Assembly: GCA_905178155.1 (NCBI GenBank)
Contig: CAJINV010000003.1
Span: 11,697,105-11,761,104 of the forward strand
DNA from: Amoebophrya sp. A120
Lineage: Eukaryota; Protista; Dinoflagellata
Direction: 5' to 3'
DNA length: 64,000 bases
Below the pieces are notes generated by a model. That model was not told the DNA's origin. It searched no databases and saw only the letters and a program-made list of their open reading frames with translations. A program made the position numbers and the translations under genes. Below are positions 378 through 63,900 of this stretch, in pieces. Positions within the stretch are counted from its first letter, which is position 1. Each line of letters starts with the position of its first letter.

Positions 378-2034
378 CCGTCCGTCCCCTGCACCAGGAG
401 TCCGCAACACTGCTCCACCTTTTCCAAGTCACACTTCTCGAGCACCGCTGCCCCGTATGCATTGCAAATAATATGTGGTCTGAGTCGGGGAAGAGTCTGA
501 GTAGAGCTTGTGATGCTAGGTCTGGTCGACACAAAAATTTGTCTTGCATAAAGCAGGATAAGTAAACAAGCATTATTGAGAAGCTCGAGAAGAAGCAGTG
601 CTCATACTTTACAACTTGTGATGCTACTAGTGCGACTTACGGTTGTTCGACAAATAATTCCACACCTTCCGGCTCAGCAATCAACATGCAGAAGCAGTAT
701 CACAAACCTCCGCAATGTTCCAGTAGCCCAGAGCCAGATCGAAGCTATTTGCGTTTCATACCTCTTGGAACAGGTCGATGCACCGAGTTTCCGGGTCGTA
801 GATGAGCGCGCCGTTGACGCGCGGCAGACTTTTCGCGTCGTAGTCGCCAATCGACCGGGTGGGCTGCAGTCCGCCCAGCCGCCCGTTGTGTGGCGGCCCG
901 TATGAACTGCAAATATGTCTGGGTCTGGAAAAAAGCAGCGCTTGTCATGCACATTTTGCATGAGCCATAACGTCTGTGATGCATGCCCTAGTATCACAGA
1001 TTTGTTGAGGGCTTTGTGATGCCTGTACTGCATGAGAGATGCCCGCTTCTCCGTGTAGCAAAAAGTGGGCCTCTTTTGCTGGTCACGCAATAGAAATTCG
1101 GTGTAGAATCCAAAGGCAGCATCACAAGTTGCAACCTTCCAGACCCAGACATATTTGCATTTGATAGCCCGTCGATGTCTGCGATCCCAGACCGCTCCAT
1201 CCGCACGCGCTCGGCCGGGCACCGGCAGGACTTATGAAGTGTAAAAATGTCTGGGTCTGGAAGAATGCAACTTGTGATGCGCATTTCAGAACACACAAAA
1301 ATCTCTCATGCATAGGTAGCAAAAGCTGCTCACTTTCTGTCACCAAAAGGGGGGATTTGTCATGCGGGTTCGGCATTGCGGAAGCTTCTCGAAACCTGTG
1401 ATGCTAGAGCTTCCATGACGGACCTTCTGTGTCATGCAGAAACAGCATGACTCTTCCAGACCCAGACATTTTTACAGTTGATAGGACTGCTCCAGGGACA
1501 AGTGATTCAGGCGGCCGAGCCGCAACTTCTTCCGGTTCCCCCGCGCCCGCGTGGAGGTGCAGTCACTCACGGGCACGTACTTGGCGTCGCAGTCCCCGAC
1601 CTGGGCGCAATACATGTAGCGGCCCCAGCACAGCACCGCGTTCATGCAGGTGCCGGACGAAATTTTTTCTTGCCACAGCGTGAATTCGCACTGCTCGGCG
1701 GCTTTCTTCATGGCCTCGGCCGGCTTGCTGGCACGTGTTCGAAAGTCGTGCAAGACCAAGTTCGGGAAGAATTCGGCCACCGTGGTCGCGGCCTGCGCGC
1801 CGTCGTGGCCGTCACAGACGCCCGAGATGAAGAGGTCGATCCTTTTTTCGTCCCCTACCGCATTGAAAGAGCCGCGAGTTGAAAAAATACGGTCTTCGTT
1901 TCCCCGGTGCGGCGGATGCACCATGTCCTCTCGTTTCTTCCCGGCCGCTGCTTTGTCGTTGGCACCGCTGTTTGACGTTTTCTTCTTTCCTTCGTCATCA
2001 GATTCGCTATCGTCGCTGTGCTCCTTATCGTTGT
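378..2034 (-). CDS. Protein phosphatase 2C (PPM family), multi-exon, ends uncertain
   Basis: Motifs GVCDGHDG, SSGTC and CAQVGDC in ORF 1472-2083. Removing elements 1233-1483, 901-1166 and 456-760 gives the continuous frame LSLEQSCRCPAERVRMERSG...GRLGGLQPTRSIGD...LIYDPE...LLVQGTDG, i.e. the remaining PP2C motifs. Confidence 0.88.
456..760. mobile_element. Degenerate family A introner-like element
   Basis: Ends tatgcattgcaaata... and ...tttgcgtttcata. Flanks ccccg/cctct (decayed DR). Removal joins LFQE to AAVLEK in frame. Confidence 0.65.
901..1166. mobile_element. Family A introner (TIR about 30 bp, 5-bp DR gcccg)
   Basis: tatgaactgcaaatatgtctgggtctggaa ... ttccagacccagacatatttgcatttgata. 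DR at 896-900 and 1167-1171. Removal gives DIDG-PPHNGRLGG. Confidence 0.92.
1233..1483. mobile_element. Family A introner (DR ggact)
   Basis: Family A TIR pair. DR at 1228-1232 and 1484-1488. Removal gives LEQS-CRCPAER. Confidence 0.92.
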
Positions 2035-2625
2035 ATGCATTGCAAAAGAAAAAGTATCGTTTATACTTTAATACGAAAATCAAAATGAATTGCCTCGTCC
2101 CAAAGTAGGTCTCACAGAAGGAAAACTCAACCTTCTCCTCATGCAGGCTCAGGTAGAAAAGCAGACCTTTGAATCATTGTCAACAAGCGGGACTACAATT
2201 TCTTGTGCGAGATGAACGCTATTTTGTACTTTTGCCCAGGATACGTCCCCCGCAGAATCGTCCGGCAAAGGCGGCAGATCGCGCCGCTTCTGGGTGAACT
2301 TGCGGCACAAGTACAAAAAATTCATATTCTCGCCCTCGCGTGCCAGTTGATGCATTGCAAACGCATCTGGGTGTCGCTCTGGAACTCAGTGCAGCAGACA
2401 CAGAAGTTTATTCTCAACATGCCAGATTATTTCTATGCCTCACGAAAACAAGAATACAGGGATCACAAGTTCTGCCAGGCCTTGGCAATGTTCGTTCTCA
2501 ATGAGGAGGAGGAGGACACCTCTATAGTCAGCTTCTAACTACTAAGCTACTCTCTCTTTAAGCTAACCATAGGACATGTTTCTGAGGACGACTAGCCGAG
2601 CTGGAGATAGAGTTGTAAATGGTGG

Positions 2626-4049: not shown

Positions 4050-7000
4050 CTAGACCATGTCCACCCACGGCACTAGCTTCACTAGCGCCGTGTCATTCGG
4101 CACGACCGAGTCCAATTTCAACTGCTCCCTTTCTTCTTTCGGCTGCTCCGATGTGTCCCGCTGCGCGTTCTCCTGGATCGCTTTGCGTAGCGATTCTGGT
4201 AGTATGCCCGGTCGGTTTTCAGATGTCATGTCAAGATAGGTCAGTATTTTGCGTGTCATTTGAGTGCTTTTTAGAATTTCGCATCGCTGTTTCATACTTG
4301 TTATTTTTGGCAGGCCGAAGCATTTCTCTCTTGCTTCTACAAAATCTGCTTGCTGGCATTCATACAAAAGGTGGTCGGTCGTTGGCAGAACTTTCTTGTC
4401 ACAGTATGGGCATTTCATGCCTGTTAGATGTGGCCTCCTTGTGTTGTGTTCGAGCTTTCCCATTCCTAGGAATCCTTTTTTCCCTGTCCCCATCCATAAT
4501 GCAAACATAATAGTATCTAGATACTGCGGACGTTTTTCTTCTGTTTTGTATTCCCGCATGCAAAATGCTCGTCGCTTCAAGTATGGGTGACATTTTGTGC
4601 TGCCTAGAAACTTGTTTTTCGTTCTTTCCTGTACTAGCCGGCGGAGCAGGTTCACTGTTGTGTCCTTTTTGTAGAAGGGCCTCTGTAGTTCTTTTCCCTT
4701 GTTGTGGTCTAAGCCTCTTGTAGCCATCGCGTCTGCAAAATCATTATAGTAGTTCGCCAGATGTGAGGGCGTCCACCTAAAGATGAACTCACACCCTGGC
4801 GCGGAAACTTTTTCTAGCTCTTCTAGCTCTCGCACGAGCTTGATGATCATGATATTACTCCGGTCCCGGAAAGCCTTCACTGCCTGCAGGAGCCCGTTGT
4901 TGTCAATGAAGAAGACGTGCTTGGTTATTGTCTTCAGCCACTGCGGATCTGAGTGGGCCCGTAACGTTTTGATGTGGTTCAGCAGGCCGTAGCACTCCCC
5001 GTCAAACGAGTCCGGGTCAGTCGTCTCCTCTGGATCACCTATTTCTGACTCAATGCAGCAACAACTTACCACGATCGGCGCAGGGCGTCGCCCCTGCTGT
5101 GCAGTGCAGTGCCAAGAGGCACCGCCCCCGCTCCCTCGTTCGAACTTTGCTCCCCCGTCTGTGTACGACACCACGGTCCGCTTCTCGCGCAATAGGGAGC
5201 GCGTTACCTGTTCGTTCATTTGCGAGATATGTAGCCTTACCTTATCCTTCTCCTCACGATCTCCCAGCCTGCCGGGATCTGCTACATCGAAGTCTGCGGC
5301 GACCTGACGCATCGGCAGCACCGTGATCCTGTTCACACCCCTCCAGTACTGCCGCCCTACCTGTAAACTTTTTGCTGCTTGTGCTAAGTCACGATATTCC
5401 TCACTCAGTGCTATTCTATTCATTCTGCATGACCAGGCTTCGTTGCACCGCCCCCAGAGCGGGTTTTCGTGTGTTGTAGTTGCGCATATCGGGTCCTCCA
5501 AGTCCCACGTTGCAAAAATGTCTGGAAGCTCGTCCGGCTCGATCTCGCTCTCCTCCTGTGTCTGGGGAGCAACGTGCTGCCCCTCGCCTGCTGCTGCGAC
5601 CACTGGAGCGGATTCCGACTCGGGGGGGACAGGGGGAAACGCTTCGGCGTCCCGTGACATTTCCGGCGATGGCCGCGCGGGCGGAATGTCCGCCTCGTCT
5701 AGGTAGAAGGGCCACAAGTCCAGAGCGGCGCCTTTGTAAAACACCATTAGAGCGTCCGTCAGAATGTTGTCGATTGGGCTCGCGAGGCCCGTGGCGCTGT
5801 ACATCAGGAAGTTGCTGCAGTTCCGCGGGATATTCAGGCGCTGTTTTATCTGAGATGCAAATGTCTTTGCTACTTCTTTCTTTGCTGAAGTCGTGAAAAA
5901 AGGAAACGGCACGACTGAGATCGACGTGATCGCAGGGAATGCAAATGCGTTCATGAGCATTATCTTTTGCTTGATGCTTTGTCCTCGTTCTGACTGCAAA
6001 AAGCGGAACTCATGCATAATTTTCTTTTGAACTTCGTCCGCGTGCGAGCGGAAGGTGTATGCTCCGTCGTAGATGCAGCCCAGGCTCTTCCCCTTTCCCG
6101 CTCTGGATTTTTGGTTCGGCTTGCTGCTATCGTACTCGATCTGCTTGTGTTTGAGCTCGTCAAAAAATATCTTCTTCGTGAGGCCGATCTTTTTCATCAT
6201 GCTGGGCACCTGCTCACCTTCAGGCGTGTTTTTGGCGACGACCGTGATATCGTCCGAGTACGCACTGAGTACGCGTATTGCTTGCAGTTCGAGCACCTCC
6301 ATGATCAAGTCGATCGTGTATCCGTTCCATACAGACCCGGAAAGCGGAGAGCCCTGCGGTTTGCCGACCCACAGAGCGTACTCCTTCCCTCCCGGTAGTT
6401 TTATTTTTCTCCACTTCATGAAGCCAGCAATTGCCGCACATTGTTGTGCTGGGCAAACCTTGGCCTTCAGTGCTCCTAAAGTCTCCACGTGGCAGACGAT
6501 ATCAAAACCAGAACAACAGTCATTCAGAACTACCTTACAGCTTACCTCCCCAAAAATCCCATCCACAATCACCGCCGTGGAGAATTCCTTCCCATGTGCT
6601 TGCCGATATGCGTTGCTGAAAGCCGGCTGAACCTTCGGGCCAAGACCCTTGTACTCCGAGCCCTCCCACCGGTGGCCATCCAGCCAAAGGCTCTGGCGCC
6701 TGTCATAAATATTGTCTAAGATCTTGCTATACACACTGCACAGTGATACGGGACGCATTAACATTTCCGTGTAGCAGCCTCCTGCCACTTTCGGCACTGC
6801 GGCCATCGAGATCAAGCGTCCTTGAGCCGGATATGATGCATGATAGACGTATGCTTCAAAACATTGAAAGAGAGCCCAGCGTAGAAGCGGCCCCGCATTT
6901 CGCACCATCTCATGCGTGGTGAGACAGTGGCCGGGGGTGCGCCCCGGTTGCAGTTTCCTTATTGCCGCCTCTACTTCCAAGAAACTCAACGGCCAGGCGC

Positions 7001-9524
7001 TGCCGCCATCTTTCTCCGCCTTCTCCTTCAAGTAGTCCTGCTCTGCTACCGTCCAGGCCCGTTCTACCTCGTCCTTGGATGCGGGCCGTGTTTCGAACTC
7101 TTCGTATACCTTGAATGGTTTACTTCTGAAAAAGTTTTTTATTATTCGACAGATTTCGGAGGGGACTCGCGTGGCCTCCTCCTCTGTGGGCACGTCGTTC
7201 ACCTTCTTGGCCTTCAAAATCTTGTTCGCTTCGTCCAAGGACTTGGCCTCGATGCCTGTAGTGCGAAGTAGATATTTCCGGCGAGACTCGAAGTCCCCCC
7301 GCACCATGACTTTCGGAAACCCCGTCGACCACCGGTTCGCACCCTTCCGCTCCTTAACCCCCTGCCAATCCAGGTCCTTCACGACGGCGGCCACCTCCTC
7401 GTCGACCGCAGGCGCAGGTGCAGTGGGGGGGGCTTTCCCCGCGGGCCGTTTGTTTGTGCCTGTTTTACTCTCTACGTTCTTGCCTGCTTTCTTGCCCTTT
7501 TTCCTGCCTATGTACTTCAGAGTTTCCAGGGCCGCGCCATGTATTGCATGCCTAATTTTTGTCAGGCATTCGTCTGCCTTTGCTGTGCTCATCTGCCTAT
7601 TTGGCTGCCAGTCCTCAGGTCTTCGCAGACCTTCTGTCCAATAGTCCATGCCTGTACCAGCGCCCGCATCACACATCTTTTCTGGCATCACAAAAAGTTC
7701 TTTTACTTTCTTATCAGCTTCTTCTGCATATGCCTTCCACTGTTCTTCTGTGGTTTCTTCAAACAAATACTTTACTCGTTCTTCCTGCTCAAACTCTAGG
7801 GGGGCGCTGAATTCCCAGTCACAGAGCTCCAGAAAGTTGTCCTTCAGCCGCAGCGTGGAGGATAACATATCATGGTCGCTCGCATTCATCTTGTGCACTG
7901 CTGTATTCTCGCTACTGAAAAATCTAGACTCAAACATAATCATGTCCGGCGATGTGAAGGAGCCGTTCTCGTGTCGGGTGGGCAGGCGTTGCACGTTGGC
8001 CTGCTGCCAGTTCCCATCGTGCTCCTCGCTCGGCCCCAGTAGGCTCGCGACCTTTGTACCTGCTGCATTTGAAGTAAAGTTTAAATTTGAACCTGTGGGC
8101 TCCCAATCCCGGTGCCGCGCGTTCAAGTCACCCATGACTATAATAGGCAACGCCATCTCTGGGTGAAGCGGAAGAGAGGACGAGGAGAAGTTGGCTGGGG
8201 GGCTGTACACCCCTCCGACCATTACTGGGTGGCCTAGCAGCCTTGCTGTTGTTACTATTTGCTCGTCGTTGTTGATGGACTCGCACATTCCGATCTCAGG
8301 CAGCCCTAGCTCCTCTCCTAGCAGCAGCATCGAGCTCTTCACATTCGTTGCGGCATCGGTAGGACAGAGGACGACGTGGAAGCCGCGCCGGCGTGCCTTC
8401 TCGATCAGCCTGCTCTTGTCACCGGCAAGGCTGGCCACGTGCGTCTCGCTGAGGTGGATGATACGGATGTGAGGATGCTGGTCCAGGAACAGCATCAACT
8501 CGTCAGTTGCAGTTAGAAGGCGGGCGGCCTCCTCCCTGGTGAGGTTGCCCTGCTTGTTCTTGTTCAAGGTGTGCGCGCTCTGCATGTTCCAGGTGGCGAC
8601 CCCTATCGTGTCGTAGATGGGCGGGCGGCTGCTCTTCGCCTTTGCGACTATGTACTTCGTCGCTTTGCCGGCATATCTTTCTGCGTCTATGTGCTTCTGC
8701 ATCTCGTCTGACGTTGCCCCGTTCTCATGCATGTATTTTATGTGCGATATCCGGTCTATTACTTCTGCACTACATTCAGGGCACTGTGTCGGCACGTTTG
8801 CCGACTTCCCTTGTCGGGCCGCTGTGCTTCTGCAAACTTCTGCATGCGCTAAAACTTCCTTCTCGCAATCTGAGTTCATGACCTTGCAAACCCCACAAAC
8901 AAACTTACCATCATTCGCCGACCTGTGCATTCGGTTTTTATGTATTATTTCACTTATTCTATAGTCACGCTCCCCTTCCTCGTCCTTGAAGTCGAAATCA
9001 AAAACATTACCTGCTATTACTCTACCCACCTCGTCCTTCTTATCGTTCCATTTGTTACAAAATTCTAAGTGGTGCGCGTGCTTGTCCGGATCTCGGGACG
9101 TGTTTCCACATCCGCATATGTACACCCTCTTCTGCGATTTCACCTTGCTGTACGACTCCAGGGCCTTGTCCACGCGCGCCTTGACCTTTTGGCGCTTCAG
9201 GTCGTTGCTTGGCAGAAACCTTGCGGCCACTGCCCCGTCAGGTGCTGGCGCCGCCTCCATCGGAACCTCCTTGCAAATCACCACTGGCCTCGGTATTCCT
9301 CCCACCTCCTCCAGAAACTCGCCGATCTCTGCCGGGCGCGCAGCCCATTGCGCGCCTTGGGGCTCCTGCTGTACCCCTCCTGTTGTGGATCTCCCCCTAC
9401 TCAAAGGTGAGACAGGATCGACACGCACAACCCCGGAGGAGCAGGATACTGCCCCCCCCTGTGTTCTTTGTTTTTTCATTATGCCTACTTCGGCTGCCAA
9501 AAATCTACATACTAAATTCATCAT
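4050..9524 (-). mobile_element. Non-LTR retrotransposon (LINE, I/ingi-like) single ORF, 1824 aa
   Basis: N-terminal Cys/His fingers. APE motifs TWNMQS, LSETH, VYSPP, GDLNA, SDH. RT motifs RPVSL, GKPQGSPLS, AYSDDI. RNase H motifs YTDGG, FIDN, WTPSH, NDFADAMA. C-terminal CPYC...HLLYEC. Element boundaries and TSD not identified. Confidence 0.95.
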
Positions 9525-11699
9525 TTTCTCTTCTTCAGCATTTCAATTCAGTAGTGTCAGTCAGAATAGGGCGCAGGTTGGTGCAGTGGTAGTGGTCAGT
9601 GTTTAGTCAGTCCACTGCACGCCTGAACTGTTTCCCTTGTCACGCCTCTCAACTTCTCAGTTCGTTCTCGGCCCCGGTTCGTAGCCAGTTTGGCTTCTTT
9701 CACGCCGTGTACCCCCGCAAACTGCGCGTCGTTCCTTTTCTCCGGTTTCTCCTTCCCGTCAACGCTGTACCGACCGCCCCTGCACCGCGGAGAGTCTCCT
9801 TCGCCACCACGTTCAGACGCCGTCCCCGACCGCCCCCGCACCGTGGCTAGCCTCTTTCTCCACCACGTTCGTCTGCCTCTTGGAGGAGGAGATTTGATCT
9901 CAACTCCTTCGCCCCACTACCAGGGGGGATCTCCGTTCCCGGTTCCTCCTCGCTGCTGCTGGAGGAGATTCCCACTCTGCCTCCCTTCGTAGCTACCTGA
10001 AGAAAGTTTTTAGTTTTTACGTGGAGGCTCTGTTGCTTTGTATCCTGCTAAGAAAAACTTATCATTCCATTACTGAGTGCGTTTTTCGGCTCTTACCGCG
10101 CCCACACTACATACACCAGAAGCAATATGAAGTAACATTGTGCCCTTTTGCGCTTACACCGCTGGCATCTCATACAGCAAAAGAGATATTTTGTACTTTA
10201 TTTGCTTCTTTCCCGAGGTCGCTATCCTGCTCCTTCCATTTTGTTTTGTTTGCCACTTCATTCTTTTCTTACTAGGGGGCCGGAATTTTTGTTCTGTACT
10301 TCTAACTCTAGTGCTTGCGCTAACTTTACTCGTCGCTGTTGGTAAAAGAAAATTGAAACGGAGGGCAAAGAATCCGTAATTATGTTCTACTCTGTTCCTG
10401 GCCCTAGATAACTACGTATGGGTCCTGCCGTTCGCCCGCAACACGACAGCTGCCCCGGTTTTCCCCCTACGACCCACCCTACCCAATCTGTGTGGGGGAG
10501 CTCGCCCATGCATCTTTGTTTGCGAGCCACTGACCTTCTTTCTCGGTGTGCGCGTGCTTGTCAGTGCTCATCCTAGGGAGTCGCATGAGCAATTCTTTTG
10601 AGCTGGGGCTGCCCTTGTGCTCTTGGGCGGTTTTAGTTCTGCGTAGAGTCGCGCACACTGTTACTCATGACCTTCTATCTGCCCCGGCGAGGTTCACCTC
10701 CCCCAGCTGTGGGATTCTGCGGCGGCTGCGACAGGCGAGATCGTAGGAGCGTATGCAGTTCCGTATGCAGTGGGCTTTGCCTCTTCGTCCACGATAAAAC
10801 GCGTAAAAGTATCTGATTCCGCTCACGCCTCTTCTTTGGCGTCGGGCTCGGTGCACGTCTGGCCGGTCCGACTGCTGTCGTGCTGCGACCGCTTCCTCGG
10901 TCCCGGTATATTCTTTATTAGTTATGTCCTGGTCGCGCTAGATAGATTTATTTCGAAAGCCGCATTTTGATCCTGTTATGATTATCTTACCTGTTTTCGA
11001 TCAAGGAAGGACGACCAGTATGCGATGCCATCTTGTTTCTTTCTTTCCCCACGCCGTTTTTTCGCCGCCGCAAAAAGGATCGGATCCAGCCCACGCTGGG
11101 CACACAAAAAAGATCTTCTCACTTGATCCTGCCACTCTTGTGGTGCTTCTTCTACTTCTCGCCGTTGCCAAACAGACCAGTTTTTCAGATAAAACTGACA
11201 AAAAACTTTGGCTAGAAGCAGACTGCCCTTCGCTGTACTGCTACCCCTAGACCTTAGCCCTTTCTCTATTCGCATCATTCTTTGCGTAACTACAAGCAAG
11301 AGCTTCTCACTTGCGCATTTGTTGCAGTGTCTTGTAAAAGTCGTACCATCGCGACTTAGCTACAAACATAAATTCGAGAACATGTACAAGATTCACAAAA
11401 TTGGTAGTATGCTGTTCGCAGGGCTGCGCAAGCACAAGTAGTAAAAGAGATCTAGAGAGCTCTCAGTTTGAATAACGACAGAAAGCAGGATAAAACACAT
11501 CCAATGACAATTTGGGTTCGAATCTCAACAAGAGCGATTGCGATAGGGAAACGCCCGAAATAGCGTGTAGCAAATTTGCGCAACCGCGGACCACGAGGGC
11601 GAAAGGCCGTCGCAGCGAGCCTTGCTAGTCCGTCACCGAAGTTTGCGGCACGCAACAAGCCCGCCGCCGGTACTAAGGCGTAGACTGACAACGAAAAGG

Positions 11700-12830
11700 A
11701 GAGGCAACGAACCAACCGCGCACCCCCGGCCCTCGCCCCAGCCAAGAAAAAAGCGGTCGGCGCGGGGCTGCCTGGGGCCGATTTGTGGCGGGCCGGCGTT
11801 GCTTTGGCTGGCCGAGCCCATTCATTGGGGCGCCGGGCCGCCAAGGTAAGAAGGCGGGCCGGCGCGCGGGGCGGGCAGGAAGACCGGCCGGCCTGGGTCC
11901 CTCCACCCAGAGTAAAGGGGGCCCTGCCTGGAAACCGCGCGCGGGCCCACCTGGGAAACAGGGCGCCGGGCGAGTCTCGCCGGCCGCGCGCGCCACCGGC
12001 CCCTTTCGGCAACAAGGCTCCCGGGGCCTTGGCGCCGCGATTGCGGGGAGAACGAAGGCAGGAGGGCGCACCCGCAGAAACAAATGGCGGCGCTGATGCG
12101 AGAGACGGGCCCCTCCGGTCCGCATATCTCTGCCGCTTCCGCCGGCGCGCCTCGGTCGTGTTCGAGCGGCAACGCGATGGCCACCTCCGGCCCCGCTTCA
12201 TCCTCGCGCGCCCTTCTGTCCGAGGGGCCGCCGAGGTAGGGCCGCCTGCGGCCTTCCAAGGGGGCCAGGACCTGTAGGAGCGGTAGGGCGCCGCCGGCCC
12301 CGGGGCGGTGCGCCGCGCGGGGCCGGCCCGGCCCGGCCCATCGCAGAAGGGCGCGCGCGCCGCGCGCAACCAATGTTCCAGCCCTACGGCGCCAGCAGGG
12401 GGGCCGGGCCCGCGGGCCCGCCCACACTTGCCAGCAGCAGCGGAGCGGGGGGATTCGGGCGGGCCCGCCTGGAGCTCTCGGGCTGGGCCCTGCCCGATTT
12501 CTTGTTTCCTGCCCTCCCCATCCCCGCTAGAGTCGCAAATGCCCCGCGCGCCCTGCCCCCTCGCTTTCCTGGAAGCTCCCGCGGTCTTGTTTGATCTGCA
12601 TCGGCAACCAGATCACGCGCCGCATATCAGGCGGGCACTCCGCTCCCGGCGTCCGCGCCGGGCCGCTCTATCGCGTCGGCTAAATAGATCACCAAGAGGG
12701 GGGGCAGGCGTGGGCCCGGCCCCGGCCTCGCCAACACCACGGCGCCGCGCGCGTCCAGGATCTGGCCCGGCTCAAAATCTGGCAGGCGAACTCGAGGCGC
12801 GCCCCCCTTGGCTACAGGCTCTGCATCGGG
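11700..12830. other. Very GC-rich tract of unknown nature (possible decayed insertion)
   Basis: Abrupt GC shift. Long ORFs in several frames encode only Arg/Pro/Gly/Ala-rich low-complexity sequence. Confidence 0.35.
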
Positions 12831-13111
12831 GCGGGGTGCGAAGCGTTTTCGAACCACCATCGACGTCCGCCATCCACTACCCTGCTGCGCTCCTTCGTGC
12901 AGACCCGACTACCTCCAGACAAGTCTGGAAGGCAAACTGAGCCTTGAGCCTTCGTTCTCAATGAGGAATCAATTTTCATCGTGGCCAAGAATTATAACCA
13001 AGCATTTCTTGCAGCTCCTCATGCAAAACAGATTTTATTCCTGGTTCACCCGCATCACAAGTTCGCACTCAATTATTGCCAGACTACCCAGACATGGTTC
13101 CAATGCGTATA

Positions 13112-14143
13112 GGTCTCCTGCGCGCAGTTTCCCGAGCTTCTTGTCCCACAGAAAAAGACAGCAGGTAGCGCATATTTGTAAAAATGGAAAAAAGATGAAC
13201 ACACAGAAAAACAAAAATCTGCACTGCGGATCCGAATAAACTTAAACAGCGTGCGATGGGCTCGCCCATGCTAGATTTTTTGTTATTTATTTTTTGCATT
13301 TATAGGAATGTGCCCTGCCTACTTTTTTCTGTATGATACTTCACTTCCAGCGCCGTCTTCGGCTCTGTCACGCCTCTATGCATTGCAAATCTTTCTGGGT
13401 CTGGATAAAAGTACGCGATTTGTCATGCTAAGCGGGCTTCTGTTCGGCATAAACGCAACACAAGTTTGTCGGGTCTTATTGCGAATTCCGATTCTTTCGT
13501 GTTTCGCATTGCAACTCCCTTCGTTCCAGTGCGACAAGCACAAGAAAGCTGGCCCACCCTCTTCATGAAATACAGGTGATCTACTTGGCGTCACGTAATT
13601 ATTATACTCACATTCTGCACCACAATTCTTCGGGCCCAGACAGTGTACAACATGTACTTCCAATGCATAGCTCCCGGCTAGAGGATTCTCAGTCTCGTCC
13701 ACTTCGATGCTCCGAAACTCTTTGACATCTACCCGGCACTTCCGCTTTTTCAACACCGGCTCCTTATTTAGTACCGCTGGCAGTTTGTTCGAGTTGGCCA
13801 GGTCGAGGGCCTTCAGCGCTGCGGCCGTCAACGGGAGTCCGTGCGAGGCGGGCTTGGGCTGGTCGGCCCGCTCTGGCTTGGGCTTGATTTTGTTCGCCTC
13901 GCTCTTGTGCGCCTCGCTCAAACGCTTGTTTGCAGCTGCAAACGCGTCCCGGTCGAAGGGGGCGATCGGCGGCTTAGCGAGGATCGGCGGCTTAGCGATC
14001 AGCGGCTTAGCGATCGGCAGCTTAGCGATCGGCGGCTTAGTAATCGTCAGGCCGAACGGGTTACTGCTCATGTTCTGACTTGCGGGACCTTGCGGCAGAG
14101 GCCGAAGCCGCTTGGCAGCGGGGGTCGGGTTGTCTTCGGGCAT
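13112..14143 (-). CDS. Hypothetical protein, 5' exons (AKPPI repeats), 3' end unresolved
   Basis: ORF from MPEDNPT. Removing 13377-13669 and 13142-13338 continues the frame LAGS-VTEPKTALEVK-LGKLRAGD. A 15-bp coding repeat lies at about 13962-14045. Confidence 0.6.
13142..13338. mobile_element. Family D introner, degenerate (DR cttct/cttca)
   Basis: Ends tgtcccacagaaaaagacagcagg ... ccctgcctacttttttctgtatgata, homologous to 24275-24445. Confidence 0.7.
13377..13669. mobile_element. Family A introner, degenerate
   Basis: Left end tatgcattgcaaatctttctgggtctgg, right end cccagac...caatgcata. Removal keeps the frame. Confidence 0.7.
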
Positions 14144-24269: not shown

Positions 24270-24274
24270 CTTAT

Positions 24275-47110: not shown

Positions 47111-47166
47111 GCATAGGAGAAGACAATTTGAGAAATCAACGGAACCATCCTATCCACTAGTACTCT

Positions 47167-52483: not shown

Positions 52484-54917
52484 TTTTCTCGAAGCTGTGA
52501 CGGAAAAAGTGGCAAGCGCTGATTTTTGACGGCACACCGCAAATTAGGCAGCGGACGAGATGAGTTTGCGTGCGCTATCCTCATCATGGATTCTCTCGGA
52601 TATGCTGGCGAACTCCTACGGCGGAAGTTGCGTTCTCGATGTCCGCTGGGCGAACGAACAACAACCAACAGGCGCAGGCCAAGATGTCACTCGCCCCGCC
52701 TTCTATCTTGCAGGGACGGGACTTCGGCGTAAAGTGCCTCCGAGGAATACCTTTTCGCACACAGAAGGGGTCCTTTGCGTCCCCTTGCAGCAAGAAGCAT
52801 GCGCGGGGCCGCCAGCAACCTGGAGTCGGCCGGTAACTAACAGCAGAAACAAACGGCGCGCGACGGGCGTATTCAGTTCGGTAGCAAGAACACGGACGCG
52901 CCCAAATTGCTTCGCTCGCCGGAAGAAACACTGGCCGAAGGGGGGCGAGTCAGCCCTGCTGGCGCGGCGTCGCGCCTCCGCTCCTCGAAAGACGCTGCGC
53001 GGCGCCCGAGGCAGGGAGTCCGCCAAGCGAGCCACGTCCGCGGGCTCGGACAATTGCCCGGCGCCCGCAGGCGGCGCCAGCGCGCTGCCCGCTGGCGAAT
53101 ACCGCCCCGAGAGCGCTCCCTGTGAGAACCGCGAGGGCTGTGCTTTTGCCGTTGCCGCCGGAACCTCTGAAATGCAACAGCAGCGGGGCATAGGCGCACT
53201 GCTTCCGCAAAGGGCCAGGCACATGCTGGCGAGCCACATCGCCAGCGCGCGCGGCGAACGTCGTCGCGACCATTTCTCTGAGCCGCATTATGTCCGCACC
53301 AGGCGGGTCGCGCTTCAGCCCGTGCGGAATCCCCATACAGCACTTATTCCGCGCTTGTTGGGAAATCGAAGTCGGAACAATGGGCACGCCCGCCCCTGGC
53401 GCGGCCCGCGAGAAGCAAAAACAAAAAACGGCGCGGGTCGCTTCTCCGCGGCGTGTTGAATTCCTGCACGCTGGTCAGCGGCGAGGGCGCGACTGTTCGA
53501 CTGAAGCGCGCGCGGTTGGCTCATTCCATCGACCCCACTGTATCGCCCCTGCGCACTTTCGCGATTTCCCTGACGCGAAGCCTTTCCGTCGCCGCCTCTA
53601 TCGGCGCAACCTGTTCACCTGGCAGAGCCAATCCATCGCAAGGCCCTGCCGGAGTTTACTCCGCTGCTGCGACGGAGGGGCCGGCACGCAGTCCTCCACG
53701 GCGCCCAAATCGCGGCTACAGCACCAACGCCATTCTCCTTGCTTCGTTTCCGAGCATGGTTCTAATGATGGGCACATCTTTGCATAGGCGTGACGCATGG
53801 TGATCAGACGCCGCCTCTATTTTTCCTGCGCCCTCGTCTCAACACGCTTCACATTGTTTCTTGCAGCTCGGTCTTTTCTCGTCGCTCGGTACATTGTACT
53901 ACATTGACTGCAATTCACACCTCTCTTCGCTCCCCTGACAGAACTCGCGTGATCCAAAAGAGGAGCACCCTTCACACGGTTTACCTCGCCATGCGCACAC
54001 GCCGCCCGGAGTTTCTCAAAGTTTGAATCTGTACAGTCCATACATTTGAAAGCTCGGTGTCCGTCTGGGTTCATTTTGGATAGTACTAGAGCACAAATAT
54101 CAAAAACAGGTCCATGGTATTCTTGCATTAGGGAACAAGTCGGTAGTTTCTAGTCCGTTGTGTCTTACGTAGTTGTAAACGAGAAAGTAAAAGTTCTAGT
54201 GCGGCTTGAATAGGGCGTTTTCTTGGTGGGAACTCGAAGACGTCGCATACATTGGTAAAAGTTTGTAAAACAGAGACAATAAGGAGGAAATCCTGCACGG
54301 GAAATACTAGGTCCTCAATTTGCTAAGTAGCTTCAAATTGCGTACCTACATCGTCCTCAGGTGGGTTGTGCAGTAGCAGCACTTCCACTTCCCCCGACGA
54401 GGCTTTTGTACTCATTGAGAAATTGATTTTCAACGCATCGCCTTACTTCTAGACTGCTGCTAAAAGATTGTACAACGGGTTTAACAGCAGGCTTAGTTCT
54501 GGAAACACTTCTTGCTACTACCGCACAGGTACAGCCAATACGTAGCTCTTCCGTAGTAGATTGTGCCGAAGATGATTGTGCGCGTTACAACTGAAACGAT
54601 TCCGTTGCTCTCGGGGGAGCATGCAACAAGTAAAACCTTTATCATCTGCGATTATATTGGAAACTCTTGGAATATCTCTTGATTTAGTGTAACATCTGTC
54701 TGCTCGTACATAACAATACTGGAAATTAAGCAATTTTGATTGGAAATTCGTAACCGCGAATAATTCAATTTCAACTTTATCAGGCATTAGGCGTAAACAA
54801 TTATCTGAAGAGGACCACTTTCATTGAGAGGCCTGCGCGGTCTCGAAAACATCTGAACCACATCACCATCACATACAGAAACAACCCCACGCCGCGCTAC
54901 CTGCTCACCACGACCAC

Positions 54918-57900
54918 TCAGAAGTGTTTCTTTTTGTTCGTGCTCTTCTCGTAGCCTTTACTCTCCCGCGACCTCCGTCTCTTCCCACCGCCCTCCCCGC
55001 GCGACTCGGGTCTTAGTCGTGCCTGCAAAATCTCGAATTCCTCTCGCCGGTTCGCCTCGAAGGACTCGATGTAGGGTGTGTTCCCCGTTCCCATCAGCGA
55101 TCCGGACGTTTTCTGCGACAGCAACGCGGACTGCGATCCATCTTCCTTCTTTTTCTTCTTCTGCGCGCTTTGCTCCTGCTCACCCGGAGTAGTCCCGGCG
55201 AGCGCTCCTTCCAGCTGTTGTCCCTGGTTTACTTCCCGGTTTTGTTGGCTCTTTGAACTCGGGGGACGGAGTTTTTCTAGTTCTTCCTCTCTCTTCCGCT
55301 TTATCTCCTCCTGCTCTTCGTAGTAAACTCCGTGGTCGATGTCGAGTAAGTCCATGACGTCGCAGCCGAAGCAGTTTGCCAACGTCACGAACGTGTCCAG
55401 AATCCCGATCGGGGACAGCGTATGCACTACAAAAATGTTTGGGTCTGGAAGTCTACAAGTTTGTCTTGCTTGGCTAGCATGACTCTTAAGTCTGTCATGC
55501 ACGTTACCCAAAAGCCACAGCTTTCAGACATGCAAAAACGCAGTTTGTCATGCTGGATAGACAACACCTATCAACTCAGTAGAAATTTGTCATGCTCAGC
55601 CGTCATTTGTAGCGTCCTCATGATTCGCCCATCAGCATCACAGGTTTATTCCAGACCCAGACATATTTGCCGTTCATACAGCGTCAACCTTGACAACCCC
55701 CTCACCGGGGTGACGTCGTCCGGCTTCACCCACAGATCCGGAATCCCCGCGGACACGGGGTTCAACCCGATAATCGCCAGCTTCGCAATTTCCGCGATGT
55801 GCTTGCTCCGGCAGAGCAGTTCCACCGGATGCGCACTCGGGTCGTAGATCTGCGCGAATTTCTTCTTGTCAATCAGCAGGCTCCGCAACCGGTCGGTCAG
55901 ATACAGAATGTAAATGTACAACTCCTCCACACCCAGTCTCCCCGCCCCCAACGCGAAGATGTAGCGCGCGGTGTACTGGAAACACCGGTACAGAAACGTT
56001 CTTCTCCGCTTCAGCCGCACGACGTGCAGATAGCCCCGGTTGAACACGTGGCGGGACTTGTGGCACTTGAACACCTCCCTGGCGGATTCGGAGTAGCAGA
56101 AGGAAAGCAAGTTCGATTCCTCGTGGGTGTCGAGGGTGAGTTCGTCCTCTTCCAGCTCCTCCTCCTCGGTTGTACTAGAGGAATGCGTCGCAGTCTGTTG
56201 CTCCTCGCCGCTCGTGGCATTCAGGTTGTCGTCTCCCGAGTTGCTGTTTTGCGCCACCGCGATCGCGACCACAGCGGCGGGAAGCTCAGGCCCATCTTCT
56301 ACCTGGCCGCCTTGCTGTTTCCTGCCTGCTTCTTTTGTTGCGCCGCTTTGGGGGCGACTTGACGTTTTCTTGCCTGCTTGTTCATCTGCTTGTTCTCCCG
56401 CATTTTCTCTCTCCGCCGTGCCCGGTTTCGAATTCTCATTCAGTTGCTCCAAGCCAAAATTGTCCGGAATGTCTTCCCCATCTACCGCCTCCTTGGCCGG
56501 AAATTGACTATTGTCCTGCGCCACCACCGCGACCGTCGCGGCGTTTGGAAACAAACCTCCATTATTACCATTTCGCTCTCTTCTCATTTGCCTTTTCCGG
56601 TCCCGCATGAACCACGGCCCCTCGTCCTCCGATTCGAAAATCCGACTTCTCGCCGGGGCAGCCAACCGGTCCTGTATCCCGAGTAAAAACGTACCCACGC
56701 CAGGGTTGTAATGCAGATTTGCAAAGACAGGAAGACTTGTAATGCGGTCCCCATGAGAGCTATTTCCAATCGTGTTTTGGAATTTGTGATGCTGTGAACA
56801 GGATGAGCAGATGAATCTGTGATGCCGCTGCACTTGCTGACCTGCACTACACTGCGTAGTGCAACTTGTCATGCGTGACTCACAAAACTCCTAGGTTTGT
56901 GTTGCAAAATCACCATCCTAAGTCTGGTGTGGGTACGTTTTTACTCAGGATACCCTGGTACTCGAACTCATCCTCGCTGTCGTCGTCGGGCGGTAGACTG
57001 AACCGCACCCGGTCGACCGGATTTTCCCACCCGTCCGCCGTGTCGACGGAACTGTCGCTGTAGCAACTGCTGTCGTCCTGTAAGATCCTCCTCCTCCGGG
57101 TTTTGCTGGTGACTTGGAACAAGTTCGACTCGTCCGTCTTGTACGCGCGCTGGCACTGCGCGGCGTAAATGTCGGAGATTTCGAATTTCAGCTTCTCCAG
57201 CCGGTTATGCTCCGCCTCCATGCGCTTCGACCCCTGCAGCCGAACCTTGTCGAACCACAGGTCCTTGCCCCGTTTCTCCTCCAATTTTCGCAACGACAGG
57301 CCTCGCAAGTCTCCCTGTCGGTTCTGGTTCTCCTTCAGCTGCTTTTTCCGTTGCAGCGCCGCGGCCGACGACCCCCCGTCCCCTGGACTGTTGCCCGCGT
57401 ACCGCGCGGCTGTCTTCTGCGCGTACTCCCGCCGGTAGTCCAGGCAGTCCTGCAATTCCATTCTTAAATTCACCCGGGAGAAAAGCGGGGCAATGTCTTT
57501 CATCGCGAGAATTGGCTCGGCGGGCAGCTCGGCGGGCGTCAACCTGTACATGTACCGCTTCACGCGGAGCTGCTCGTCGGTGATGGCATCCAGGTCGTCC
57601 TCGTCCCCTCCGTTCCCACCACCGCCGAACGCCACCAGCGCGCCCTCCGCGCCGCTCGCATTGCGGCTCGCGTTGGCGGAGGAAGAGCTCGTGTGGCCGC
57701 GGGGTTTCGGGAAGACGGGGTCGATGAAGTTCCCCTGGCTAGTTACTTCGTAGAAATTCTGTTTGTCGAACCGAAACCGGCCGACCAGGCCGCACACCCC
57801 GTTCCAGTTTGTGTCGGGAACCACCAGGGAGCCCGGAGCGTTGTCGTTCTTTGGCTTATTATTCGCTGACGCGGAAGATGTACCACCACCTCCTGCAGCA

Positions 57901-60900
57901 TTTCCGCCAGGAGCAGGTGAGGACCCACTAGTTGTACCGGCGACGACAGACACGGTTTTCTTTTCCCGCTCCGGGGAGTTCGGTGGTGGCTCGTCCCCCT
58001 GTGTCAAAAACGTTTTGTTCGGCGAGTTCTTGTTCGGAGATGTTGGTGGTGGTCTATTCATCTGGGAGCTGTCCTGGATCGCAGCCGAAGCAGCGCCCGC
58101 CGCGAAACCGCTGTTGTTCCCCAACATCTTCATAGCCCCCACTCTTGGCACTGGCAGCGGCGCGGAGCCGAAGAACGCTAACGCAGCTTCCTCTCCCTTC
58201 TCGTGGACCCACCAATCGAGGAATTCCTTGCCGTACCGGCCGGCTAAAAAAGGTAAGAGCGAAATTCCGTTGTGGACCCAAAACACGTCCGGCGCGCCGA
58301 TGGTCTTCATCATGTGCTCGTGGGTGCTGGAGGCCCACACCTGCAACTCGTGCTCGCCCTTCAATTTCTCCTGCTTCGAGCCCCCACCGCCCTGTTGCTC
58401 GTTGTTGCCGTCGTCGTCGTCATCCATGACCGCCATGCCCGCGGGACGTAAGGGTGCGCCCTTTACCGTCACCGTCATGAAGAGCAGGTTCGAGTACGAG
58501 TCGTGCACCTCATCCGAGCTGTTCCTCGTGTGCAACCCCCGCGGCGTCCACTGCTCGTCTTCGCGCTTCACCTTCTCCCTCACTAATCCGGCGACCTTCT
58601 CCGTGTTGGACAAAAATTTCTTCCGGTTTTGCTTCACCCGCGCCTGCTGCATCTTCGCGTTCTCCAGGCCGGACTGCTCGGAAAAGCTGCTCGACTGCAA
58701 GTCCCCGAACCGGTTCGGCTTCTTCGCCTCCGCGGCGACCTGTCCCAGTTGCGCCGCCTGCGCTTGGACCATCGCGCGGTAGCGCCCAAAAACCTCCGCC
58801 TGCCGCAGCATCCAGGTTTTTTCCAACGGTTTCTTCCACTTGCACGGCCCGTTGCTCACAAACGTGTAGTCGTACCGTTCCGGTCTCGCGGGCCGCCGGT
58901 GCAACCGGTTCCAGATCACCGTGATTCGCGGGGCGAGCAGGAGTTGTTCCTCCTCCTCTTCCGCAGAGGAAACTCCCCCACTCATCTGCGCAGCCCGTTG
59001 ACCACCCGCTGTGTTGACCGCAACGATCGCGCTCTTCTCCGTCCCCGTTTGCTCCCCGCTGCTCTCGTTCGCGGAGAAGTATCGCACAGAAAAAAGGTGA
59101 CTATACAGGACACATCTGTTGTATATGCAAACGCAAACACACAGAAAACTGTCATGCACGTGCCCATAGCTTGCTATTTGCAATGGGGTATGTAGTTGTT
59201 TTCATCTTGATTTTGCAGTACAAACACTAGTATGGTGCTATGCTACCTCTATTCTGCGAGATATGGAGCTACTGCTGCTGCTCTCTTCCGGCTCGGGCTC
59301 GACGTAGCGGTAATCATCGCCGAAAAGCAATAACTTCCGCTCGTTTCCCCAAGCCGGTTTTTGCGTCCAAGCGAAGTCCCGGCCCCCTCCGAACACCGGT
59401 TCTTTGGGGGGTTTTTTACTCCTCCGTTTCGCCGCTTTGCTGTCGTCCTGCTCGTAAAACTTCAACTCCCGTTGCCGCCTCTTCTGACTCTGCCGGGTCT
59501 GCAGCACCAGCCCGGTGTCTGCGCGCGGCCACCGCAGATCGGGAACTTCTTCCGGGAGGACCAACGCTTCCGTCACGTCGTCCTCGTCGGACAAGTCCCG
59601 GTGGTCCGTGGGGAGCAGGTGCAACAAAAAGTTTTTCCCCTTGCCCTCTAAAGGCATGTCCCGGCGGAACTTCACACCTTCGAGGTTCTCTCTTCCGAGC
59701 TTCTTTTCCGACCGGGAGTAGGTTTTTACCCTCTTCGCCGGGTTGAAAGCGACGACGTTCTGCGCCTGCATTTTCCGCAAGGTCGCCGCGTCCTCCTGCA
59801 TAAGAATGGACTCCACGGTGGAGAGTTCGGGGACCGCGTTGGCGTGCATGAGGAAATCACTCCTGTTCGACTTGCTGCTCTGTTTCGTGTCCGGCCGGTC
59901 GGTCTTTTGTGATTCCGGTCGGCTGGACTGGGAGGTTTTCAGCTCTTTGTCTTTCTTCTTCTTGTTAACATCCTTGTCCTTCGCGGGGGAGGGAGACTGA
60001 GACTGCTGTCCCAGCGCGAGGCGCGCGGTCGTGCCCGGGGAGGTCTGCCTTGCTGCGGGGAGCAGGTCCTCAATCTGGATGGAAACGAGGCCCTGGAGGG
60101 AGAGGAGATTTTCATTTTTTGGAAAAATATATATAAAGCAGGGGTTTGGTGGGGTCGCAGGGGTTATTTTTGTCTAGCGCCGGAAGAGCAGAACCGCGGG
60201 AGCCAAAGCCCTCATGTCGAAGGCTGCGCGGTTTGGCCAATTTGGTATCCTACCCCGATTCCCCTAATTTCATACCCTCACCCGATTCGCCTTCTTTTGT
60301 ACCCTACCCCGATTTGGCTAATTTTGTACCCTCCCCGAATTTTGTACCCTATCCCGATCTCCCTAATTTTGTGCCCTAGCCCGATTTGGCAAATTCAGTA
60401 CCCTCGCCGAATTGTGTACCCCATCCCGATTTGCCTAATTTTGTACCCTAGCCCGATTTGGCAAATTCTGCACCCTCCTCGAGTTTTATACCCTACCCCG
60501 GGCAATTTTGTAAGTGTGTGCCCTGCCCCGAAAGGCCTCCGCTTGCGCCCCCGGGAAACACGGAAACCGGGAAACGCGGAAACCGGGAAACGCGGAAACC
60601 GGGAAACACGGAAACCGGGAAACACGGAAACCGGGAAACACGGAAACCGGGAAACACGGAACCCGGGAAACACGGAACCCGGGAAACACGGAACCCGGGA
60701 AACACGGAACCCGGNNNNNNNNNNNNNNNNNNNNNNNNNNNNNNNNNNNNNNNNNNNNNNNNNNNNNNNNNNNNNNNNNNNNNNNNNNNNNNNNNNNNNN
60801 NNNNNNNNNNNNNNNNNNNNNNNNNNNNNNNNNNNNNNNNNNNNNNNNNNNNNNNNNNNNNNNNNNNNNNNNNNNNNNNNNNNNNNNNNNNNNNNNNNNN

Positions 60901-63900
60901 NNNNNNNNNNNNNNNNNNNNNNNNNNNNNNNNNNNNNNNNNNNNNNNNNNNNNNNNNNNNNNNNNNNNNNNNNNNNNNNNNNNNNNNNNNNNNNNNNNNN
61001 NNNNNNNNNNNNNNNNNNNNNNNNNNNNNNNNNNNNNNNNNNNNNNNNNNNNNNNNNNNNNNNNNNNNNNNNNNNNNNNNNNNNNNNNNNNNNNNNNNNN
61101 NNNNNNNNNNNNNNNNNNNNNNNNNNNNNNNNNNNNNNNNNNNNNNNNNNNNNNNNNNNNNNNNNNNNNNNNNNNNNNNNNNNNNNNNNNNNNNNNNNNN
61201 NNNNNNNNNNNNNNNNNNNNNNNNNNNNNNNNNNNNNNNNNNNNNNNNNNNNNNNNNNNNNNNNNNNNNNNNNNNNNNNNNNNNNNNNNNNNNNNNNNNN
61301 NNNNNNNNNNNNNNNNNNNNNNNNNNNNNNNNNNNNNNNNNNNNNNNNNNNNNNNNNNNNNNNNNNNNNNNNNNNNNNNNNNNNNNNNNNNNNNNNNNNN
61401 NNNNNNNNNNNNNNNNNNNNNNNNNNNNNNNNNNNNNNNNNNNNNNNNNNNNNNNNNNNNNNNNNNNNNNNNNNNNNNNNNNNNNNNNNNNNNNNNNNNN
61501 NNNNNNNNNNNNNNNNNNNNNNNNNNNNNNNNNNNNNNNNNNNNNNNNNNNNNNNNNNNNNNNNNNNNNNNNNNNNNNNNNNNNNNNNNNNNNNNNNNNN
61601 NNNNNNNNNNNNNNNNNNNNNNNNNNNNNNNNNNNNNNNNNNNNNNNNNNNNNNNNNNNNNNNNNNNNNNNNNNNNNNNNNNNNNNNNNNNNNNNNNNNN
61701 NNNNNNNTGGTCCATCCGCCTCAGTAAAGGGAGCATCGCCCTCAAGCTCCTCCGCAAGAAAGTCCAAAGCAAACAAGATCCCGCCCCCGTGTTGCACGCG
61801 TGTGGTCCATCCGCCCCAATGTTTTGCGCGTGTGGTCCATCCGCCCCAGTGAGTGTTTTGCGCCTGTGGTCCATCCGCCCCAGCGAGCGTTCTTTTGCGA
61901 GTGAGGTCCGTCCGCCCCAGTAGAGGGAGCATCGCGCCCGAGATTCCGCGACGAGCGACCTCGCGCCCTACCCGCCGCCCGGCTTGCGAGCGGCATTGGC
62001 AACAAGGCCGGCCCCTCGCCAGCGCCCGACAGCACTGCACTCGGGGCGCCTTCGCAACACAGTCGCCAAGTGTGGCGAGAAGGGTTCTGCGAGTGAGGTC
62101 CACCCGCCCAAGTAAAGGGAGTACCGCGCTCAAGCTTTAGATTCCGCGATGAGCGACCTCGCGCCCTACCCCGCGCGCCGTCGCCCCTCCTTCCCGTCCT
62201 CGCCTAGTTCTTCTCTTCCCCTCCCGCCCCTGCGACCGCACTGCTTTTCCTGGAGATTCCTTCCCCCGAGCTAGTAATTTACATTTAATTCAGTTCATCT
62301 TGTTTCAAGACCTGATTTCTCAATGATGAATGGTCATCACCATGACCATCTTGAATCAGCATCAACCCCTAAAAAGCAATGACACTACTACAACTTAAAT
62401 AATACCCTCGGCGCATCCCTTGAGTCCCCATATGGCACCGTGCGTTTTCGCAGTCTTCTTCTCGGCAACTGCTTCAGCTGGTCCTGATCGCCCTCGATCC
62501 GCAGCACCATGGTGATTTGCGATCTCTTGTCGCCTCGCGCAGCCACGTTCCACGAGGTCACGCCCGTCATCCCGGTGCCCCGAAACGCGATCAACCTCTG
62601 CGCCGCCACGTGGAACCACTCGTTGCAGTTTTGCACACAGACTTTGCTCCCCATGCAAAACCCCGCCGCAAAGTTCTCCTTGTGCAACACCGCGAATCGG
62701 CGGGAAAACTCGCGCACCCGGTCTCTCAGAGTGGATTTCTTGCCGCAGTTATTACAATGAAAAATGCCCCCACCCCCGAACTTGAAAGCATTTGTATTGC
62801 AAACCTTTCCAAATGAAACATTCGCCCTCTTGCATGTATCAGCATCACAGATTTCCGATCGTGAATAGCAAAAATTTGCATTGCAAAAGATCCCAGCAAG
62901 AGCGGCGCTTGTCATGCAAGCGATGCGAAACACGACTAGAATCTGCATCAGAAAGATTCATACTCCTTTCGTGCATGACAAAAAGTTTTCATTTGGAAAC
63001 TTCGCATCACAAATTTTTGCAACTTTGAGGGTGGGGGGAACTTTTCACTGTAATAGCAGTGTTTTTTCAGGAAAACGACCCACTGCCGGACGGAGTATCA
63101 AATGTAAAAATGTCTGGGTCTGGAAGAATGCAACTTGTCATGCTAAATCTGAAGCAGGCAAAAAATTGTGGTGCATGATTGCCAAAAGTCGTCCAGTTTT
63201 GACCAAGTCGGGAGGCAGTTTCTCATGCAGGATAGGCATGAGAAGGATCGCACAGAATTTGTCATGCTAGGTCCTGCATTCCAGACCTCATGGGTCATGG
63301 AAAAGCTGCATGAAAAATCGCGCATTCTTCCAGACCCAGACATTTTTACATTTGATACGGAGAGCTCCTGGACGATCCCCAGCGCCGCCTTCTTTTTCTT
63401 CGGCATCTTCGGCACGTCCGCCTCCTTGCCTTCCTTTTTCGCCTTCTGCCGGGCCCGCATGGCCGCCGCCTCCGCGGCCGCCCGCTCCTCCCCGTCCCCC
63501 TCGAAACCCGGATCCAGCATCGGCCACGAGCCGAATTCGCACAAATACTGTCCCGCGTACGCAAGGCGCTGGCGCCCGAAGTAGTCCGGCGGAATCTTCT
63601 CCCTGCCCGCGCGCACCGCCCGGAGCAACGCGGCGCACTCCGGGGTCGGACCCGTGGACCCCCCGGGGGACGCCATTTTCCGGCCCTGTTGCACGTTTCT
63701 GGACGGGGAGGGGAGATTTGTCAATACCGGCGAAGTCGCCGTGCCAGCATGCGCAGCTTTCGTCGGAGAAGACAACTGCTGGTTTTCTGCGTCTTTATCT
63801 CCGACAGCGTTGTTTGTGAACCCGAAGACCGCGTTCGCGTGGTACCCGGCGTTCATTTTCACCGTCGACAGAGCTAAGCGCGCTTTTTTCGACGGCTTGA

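Follow-up and report, generated by a model that had tools for sequence, protein, structure and literature searches.

The 64,000-nucleotide stretch of Amoebophrya sp. A120 analysed here (the window; contig CAJINV010000003.1, positions 11,697,105 to 11,761,104) harbors 29 elements with inverted TAT...ATA ends, which share a reiterated internal motif, TTGT[ACG]ATGC, recurring at a fixed spacing. We suggest, with a probability of roughly 60%, that the elements represent non-autonomous DNA transposons with terminal inverted repeats (TIRs), of the A120 introner type, lying in exons, and that the motif is likely to be bound by a single lineage of transposase, encoded elsewhere. Judged by their sequence, the elements match the already known A120-type introners, because their end code and host agree with those reported by Farhat et al. 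(2021; PMC7789003); the system is known, and the spaced motif would be what is new. The motif, its inward placement and its 31–33-bp pairing have no earlier description in the literature searched and appear new, though the figures of Farhat et al. may show more. The strict 5-bp target site duplication (TSD) across families and the split of mobility and splicing signals also appear new. The text of the published work leaves open both the movement of Amoebophrya introners and their splicing, in which neither GT-AG ends nor a detected U1 take part, and a motif with fixed spacing offers both a bait for the moving protein and a signature for the autonomous parent.

Element ends, target site duplications and families

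A search for inverted ends detected 27 elements, and two decayed ones were then added, giving 29 with sizes of 150–1,213 bp. The preliminary description of this DNA had proposed a shared TATC...GATA terminus. This did not hold: TATC is present at 33 of the 58 ends (TATG at 18) and at both ends of 10 elements only. The conserved terminus is TAT followed by seven looser bases and AAA (TAT-N7-AAA), and the pairing of the two ends is best at positions 1–3 and 9–15, with positions 4–8 variable. The families A to E named before stand, and their count of five was too low, as an F type with TATGA ends makes at least six in the window. The elements satisfy the definition of MITEs (miniature inverted-repeat transposable elements), being short, non-coding and of high copy number with a TIR and a fixed TSD. 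The summed contig depth over the family A, B and C bins was more than 100,000 vs about 50 elsewhere, and insertions were found in both orientations relative to the host transcript.

The 5-bp TSDs claimed earlier are exact around 17 of the 29 window elements, not around all of them, and lengths of 3, 4, 7 and 8 were exact in none of the 27 elements tested. Metagenome contigs were also scanned with the family A end, which gave at least 173 loci; all matches listed came from one assembly, JACKZZ01, with elements up to 96% identical to those of the window, and viral contigs gave no match to this end. Because the loci were picked by the family A end, family A is over-represented in them (155 of 256 elements). 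All counts from this second assembly refer to the listed loci. Among 281 short TIR pairs selected without regard to TSD, an exact 5-bp TSD was found in 220, one of 4 bp in a single pair, and none of 6, 7 or 8 bp. The 220 comprised 171 different TSDs, so that the target sequence is near-random. The families did not differ in TSD length, 5 bp being the only one. A shared pattern of TSD mismatch positions was not replicated, the mismatches lying mostly at positions 4–5 in the window and at position 1 in the loci.

The elements of the second assembly with at least 4 of 5 TSD matches (256 in total) fell into 21 clusters. That the interiors of the families are otherwise unlike each other, as first described, was overstated; the families have their motif spacing in common, and weak alignments were found for some pairs from different families, with scores of 28 (B–A) and 23 (D–C) against about 10 for shuffles, which destroy the motifs and therefore inflate the cross-family scores by comparison. 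Within families A, B and C the interior alignment maxima were 106–159. With this inflation in mind, the cross-family alignments suggest a common ancestry of the families, which would explain part of the sharing. An Rfam scan of the window gave no match.

The internal motif

The motif or its reverse complement occurs 50 times in the window, 46 times in 8,551 bp of elements vs 4 times in the 54,456 bp outside, and 300 dinucleotide shuffles of the elements gave a mean of 0.5 motifs (maximum 3). The enrichment over background on which the preliminary description had staked its claim was thus borne out, and all 11 motif positions that it quoted were correct within 1 nt. An unbiased count of 7- and 8-mers ranked the same word first, in all families, and a longer form of the motif is GAA[TC]TTGT[CGA]ATGC. 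At 13030–13340, decayed A-like and D-like element ends hold two of the motif copies that were counted as background. In the second assembly, 538 motifs were found in the 62,682 bp of the 256 elements, and the motif was carried by 20 of the 21 clusters and 250 of the elements.

The placement of the motif is also shared. Of the 42 end-strands in the window that bear a site, 25 have the first inward-reading one at a distance of 33–46 nt; in families A, B, C and D it is often followed by a second site 31–32 bp deeper. A spacing of 31–33 bp corresponds to about three helical turns. With the criterion that at least a quarter of the members have it, a pair at this spacing was found in 14 of the 21 clusters; when one member was drawn per cluster, 9.6 clusters had such a pair vs 1.0 expected, with a null maximum of 5 in 2,000 random placements. 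Other spacings were found in no more than two clusters. In the four largest clusters, conservation was higher in the motif columns than in the rest of the interior (0.88/0.67, 0.93/0.82, 0.85/0.72 and 0.87/0.78), in a test that placed motifs on the alignment majority and is thereby somewhat biased toward conserved columns. Long family A elements with exact 5-bp TSDs and unique interiors occur at positions 632–1465 of locus L034, 3862–4492 of L073 and 571–1051 of L072, and long copies of this kind retain the first site at each end (34/41 in L034, 43/34 in L072). The L034 element, of 834 bp, is near the published family 38 in size. In the A and E clusters, nucleotides 3–10 of some ends resemble the motif core (5–6.5 of 8).

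Two further patterns were considered and rejected. A general 10.5-bp periodicity of the window motifs had a score of 0.31 vs 0.08, which was driven by the 31–33-bp pairs. Transib/RAG-like ends have CAC..GTG termini and two end types one helical turn apart; here the ends are TAT, and a 12/23-like asymmetry, in the form of 33–37 paired with 40–46, is limited to 36 of the 155 family A copies.

Removal from the transcript

The elements are named below by their first position. The gene with UvrD-like helicase domains at 15884–34005 (minus strand) encodes about 3,930 aa after removal of the elements with 5 nt each, one canonical intron and one composite intron. The transcript evidence is one contig of 5,786 nt from a putative RNA run, X1, whose RNA status is guessed. 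This contig matches five exon pieces without differences and skips the DNA between them; contigs of run X5 pass intact through elements 16462, 18652, 18867 and 20532. In three of the four gaps the removed length is the sum of the elements, each with 5 nt: 786 (three elements), 1,459 (two elements) and 1,833 (seven elements and one canonical intron of 177 nt), two of these sums being partly fitted, since it was a fit to the leftover length that revealed elements 16462 and 18867. The fourth gap requires a composite of 527 nt, in which element 24275 lies inside the end of an older element (24272–24794); by the +5 rule this composite lacks 1 nt. The reading frame of the UvrD gene opens on removal of the element plus k nt only for k = 2, 5 and 8, and the contig shows 5. 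In 26 of 27 elements, GT/GC-AG is not reached by shifting the boundaries within the TSD. Removal from the mRNA without GT-AG, as in A120-type introners, was thus found on one putative-RNA contig.

Two imperfect TSDs bracket the cut, read in transcript sense, after position 2–4 (element 16462) and after position 4–5 (element 16812). If there is a single rule, these two junctions suggest an intron made up of 1 nt, the element and 4 nt, with the terminal T at intron position +2; the cuts would lie 1 nt upstream of TAT and 4 nt downstream of ATA. In contrast to a single cut rule, variable positions are reported in the text of Farhat et al. (PMC7789003). The recovery of GT/AG at the inferred cuts is weak, with G before TAT in 44 of 138 cases and a 3' AG in 20 of 138. 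Putative RNA runs X8 and X9 gave 25 and 3 partial reads, all at element ends and without junctions. Beyond the family A end at 22105–22136, the only part they match, the X8 reads run on into different sequence, suggesting a related strain in which this end occupies other positions. An exon of a replication factor C (RFC) subunit, the one host protein tested, had its best match in Amoebophrya sp. A25 (56%, E 7e-64), the next being 38% (E 9e-24); this puts the host in Amoebophrya, and the type of the element ends points to A120 or a near relative.

A DNA-level or an RNA-level signal

The host strand was assigned by codon score for 138 of the 281 elements of the second assembly. In these, 227 motifs were in sense and 199 in antisense to the transcript, so that no strand bias was seen; family A was oriented 44 vs 34, with 11 ties. 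In the terminal stems, G-U pairs were not in excess relative to A-C (75 vs 77 in the loci, 19 vs 13 in the window), and selection on an RNA stem was not seen. Copies with a decayed TSD were poorer in the motif: the 8 such copies hold 10 motifs in 1,938 bp, the 16 young ones 46 in 4,238 bp (p = 0.016). Folding is strong in young copies, with z reaching -14; copies 16462, 18652 and 18867, with 0–1 motif and folding z values of -0.7, -1.9 and 0.0, nonetheless fit an exact removal. These observations, although the numbers are small, favour a role of the motif in mobility rather than in splicing. The DNA-level factor is preferred over a splicing factor because there is no strand bias and old, motif-poor copies are still removed. 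Old copies spliced without motif or hairpin give a hint that separates the mobility signal from the splicing signal.

Proposed mechanism and alternatives

One shared trans-acting factor, as first proposed, fits the data because TSDs of only one length, a common end code and the same motif at a fixed spacing are shared by 20 of 21 clusters of the second assembly. That proposal had allowed for either a transposase or a splicing factor; the former is now favoured and the latter disfavoured, and the factor was not found in the open reading frames (ORFs) scanned. The transposase would probably bind both sites of a pair from the same side of the helix, cut at the TAT ends and insert with a 5-bp stagger. 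More tentatively, with somewhat less than an even chance, it would be an integrase-like DDE enzyme related to Ginger, IS3EU and GingerRoot. The families would have descended from one ancestor, the sites being kept as the intervening DNA drifted. Splicing would read only the element ends and would not need the internal motif. A wider proposal, which we consider unlikely, is that one integrase-type lineage built most introns of the genome via a helically phased array of sites, while a hairpin-independent end code (N-TAT-N7-AAA ... TTT-N7-ATA-NNNN) sets the splice sites and is read by a protein that replaces U1, possibly the same transposase after domestication.

Several results weigh against the proposal of a transposase that binds the motif. 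From the 301 window ORFs of at least 90 aa, 60 were scanned, chosen as the long ones and those internal to elements, and none had a transposase domain, in agreement with the earlier statement that no transposase is encoded in the window. Nor was such a domain found in 107 ORFs from the loci of the second assembly, namely 106 of the 122 with at least 230 aa (16 mostly overlapping opposite-frame ones being omitted) and one ORF of 137 aa, which lies in the 834-bp element and has no Pfam or Atlas match. An autonomous element with the same ends was seen neither in the window nor in the 548 kb of loci, where the longest pair with an exact TSD is the one of 834 bp. The outermost 46 nt are free of sites in family E (34 copies), and in family C many copies bear them from a single end. 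Inward sites exceed outward ones by only 18.4 to 8.9, and in family A a spacing of 39 bp, which is off-phase, is as frequent as 31 bp. No more than three spliced copies are poor in the motif; two were recognised through the leftover-length fit, and all three come from one putative-RNA contig. Farhat et al. (PMC7789003) found no transposase in A120 and, in the text of their report, rejected a general mobilisation by transposase; the shared motif speaks against this published exclusion of a general transposase.

The motif might instead be bound by a host DNA-binding protein, such as an accessory bending, chromatin or transcription factor, which the elements exploit and which is not the transposase. 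The same DNA-level evidence (spacing, absence of strand bias, conservation) would agree with this, as would the lack of a reported transposase in A120 in the text of Farhat et al. However, the motif is nearly missing from other host DNA (the 4 copies in 54,456 bp), and the resemblance of end nucleotides 3–10 to the motif core is expected if one protein reads both. We regard a host factor as rather unlikely.

It is quite unlikely that the motif acts at the RNA level, either as a splicing signal or by pairing in a way that lets a spliceosome lacking U1 locate the non-canonical ends. The sites stand in both orientations, so that every insertion shows some of them in sense, and inverted sites can pair; the good folding of young copies and the failure to detect U1 in Amoebophrya, as given in the text of Farhat et al. 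(PMC7789003), also speak for it. But the sense bias and the G-U excess are both missing, the three motif-poor copies with weak folding still fit exact removal, and a fixed spacing of 31–33 nt suits double-stranded DNA.

It is very improbable that the motif is a functionless relic of descent from an internally repetitive ancestor. The cross-family interior alignments would agree with such descent, but the motif columns outlast their neighbours within families, and the spacing persists where the DNA between the sites fails to align. Insertion of non-LTR elements usually leads to variable TSDs and truncated ends. Movement via RNA, by reverse transcription or reverse splicing, for instance with a non-LTR reverse transcriptase such as that of the window, and with the motif read by that machinery, is the least probable of these alternatives. 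A window ORF of 1,830 aa for an endonuclease-reverse transcriptase (4053–9542) and the copy-paste route favoured in the text of Farhat et al. (PMC7789003) speak for it; the strict 5-bp TSD, the intact inverted ends and the two insertion orientations speak against it.

Comparison with known systems

The text of Farhat et al. (PMC7789003) describes the inverted repeats of A120 introners as TAT, seven looser bases and at least three A. The window elements have TAT-N7-AAA inverted ends, a short direct repeat at the exon borders and an Amoebophrya host, and resemble those introners in their end code, border direct repeats, non-canonical introns of about 240 nt and many families. The two accounts differ in that the published direct repeats are of 3–5 nt, whereas those of the window elements are strictly 5 bp, and in that the text of that paper names no internal motif, whereas the window elements share a spaced motif across families.

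Gozashti et al. (2025; PMC12130899, Dataset S2) list the A120 family 38, filed as Ginger, with TA/TA termini, a 5-bp TSD and ORF homology to Copia/Gypsy, and the text states that other A120 introners look similar to it. The window elements share the TA/TA termini, the 5-bp TSD and the TIR with family 38, but that family is of about 810 bp and has the Copia/Gypsy-like ORF homology, unlike the window elements. In 50 of the 58 A120 rows of that dataset, most other families are given as 'TIR DNA, unknown', and one is Mutator-like with a TSD of 8–9 bp.

The elements may work like IS3EU and GingerRoot (PMC10045372, PMC6839031), which, as described there, also have TA..TA termini, TIRs and no fixed target sequence. 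A TSD of usually 6 bp in these groups is a further point against a common type of enzyme, as it was found in 0 of the 281 TIR pairs here; because their TSD is of 5 and not 6 bp, the elements fall outside IS3EU and GingerRoot. According to the same sources, GingerRoot TIRs are 100–150 bp long, and IS3EU and GingerRoot encode their own transposase, unlike the elements here. The termini of Ginger1 and Ginger2 are given as TG..CA, and those of the window elements are TAT..ATA.

In the Emigrant/Lemi1 MITE (PMC1636448), the transposase is reported to bind subterminal repeats. Emigrant, as described in that paper, is like the elements here a non-coding TIR element with repeated internal sites; Emigrant/Lemi1 differ in being pogo-type and not introns, and binding was demonstrated there whereas it is inferred here. 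For splicing, the nonconventional introns of euglenids (PMC11282704, PMC12501133) are, by analogy, the closest counterpart, and these sources describe the same lack of GT-AG, short inverted end motifs at fixed cut offsets and TSD-like repeats. The euglenid code is CAG/CTG at +4 to +6, and here TAT/ATA would stand at +2 and -5; old copies here would need no hairpin, unlike the euglenid introns.

Individual elements and other features of the window

Family A is represented by eight elements and some A-like ones. Two lie in a PP2C gene and have exact TSDs of 5 bp: 901–1166, with sites at 43, 75 and 115 from the left end and 41 from the right end, and 1233–1483, with sites at 41, 72, 126 and 165. 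Exact TSDs were also found for 21897–22136, 22657–22908 (site at 34 from the left; 42, 73, 106 and 165 from the right), 26596–26849 (41, 72, 128, 167 and 34), 55421–55678 and 63096–63357, which has a perfect TIR of 25 nt and sites at 41, 72, 126, 165 and at 43, 75. In 19459–19716 the TSD is 3/5 and the sites lie at 42, 73, 133 and 172 from the right end. The A-like element 23903–24179 has an exact TSD; old A-like copies with a TSD of 3/5 are 456–760, with two strict motifs, and 13377–13669.

The family B elements 19984–20299 (sites 45, 77, 129, 161 and 46, 82), 26116–26455, 29250–29570 and 62750–63055 (sites 44, 161 and 45, 76, 104, 207) have exact TSDs, and that at 29250 lies between the exons for the N- and C-terminal UvrD domains. 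A long family B element of 1,213 bp (16812–18024; TSD 4/5) is missing from the transcript contig. Nested in it is an element of 854 bp (16959–17812) with TTAGG...CCTAA ends, an inverted repeat of 81 nt and its own 5-bp TSD; it has no motif, and its TTA-purine-purine start resembles the A25-type end given in the text of Farhat et al. (2021; PMC7789003).

In family C, 22254–22532 has an exact TSD and sites at 33, 64, 112, 194 and 225, and 56675–56952 a TSD of 4/5 and sites at 33, 64, 111, 144, 193 and 224; the C-like element 40090–40313 (TSD 4/5) is without the motif. Family D comprises 20532–20755 (exact TSD), 24275–24445 (exact TSD; sites at 33 and 64 from both ends), which is the one inserted in the end of the older element 24272–24794, and 59080–59263 (TSD 3/5). 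The family E element 19767–19916 (TSD 4/5) has sites at 101 and 110 only, and an old E-like copy, 18652–18814, has a TSD of 2/5 and one motif. Both family F elements, 20799–21019 with its TATGA ends and the long one at 25022–25531, have exact TSDs.

Three old copies are without a hairpin. Elements 2034–2243 (TSD 3/5) and 16462–16697 (TSD 2/5) are also without the motif, the latter being missing from the transcript contig (236 + 5 nt); 18867–19155 is near single-copy, with a TSD of 3/5 and one motif, and removal of 289 + 5 nt fits the contig.

Apart from the elements, an intact ORF of 1,830 aa with endonuclease-reverse transcriptase and RVT_1 domains (4053–9542, minus strand) belongs to a non-LTR retroelement and has no introner inside. 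GC-rich intergenic stretches at 11450–13000 and 52550–53850 gave no Pfam match and have no copy in the loci. A block of 1.7 kb at 40470–42215 lies between imperfect direct repeats of about 28 nt and consists of palindromic units of about 45 nt at a spacing of about 85 nt, together with longer perfect palindromes; it likewise had neither a Pfam match nor a copy among the loci. At 50740–51265, between the exons of a short-chain dehydrogenase, a unit of about 142 nt without an Rfam match occurs four times. At 60233–62137, tandem arrays of 27 nt and of 8/16 nt flank an assembly gap of 993 nt.

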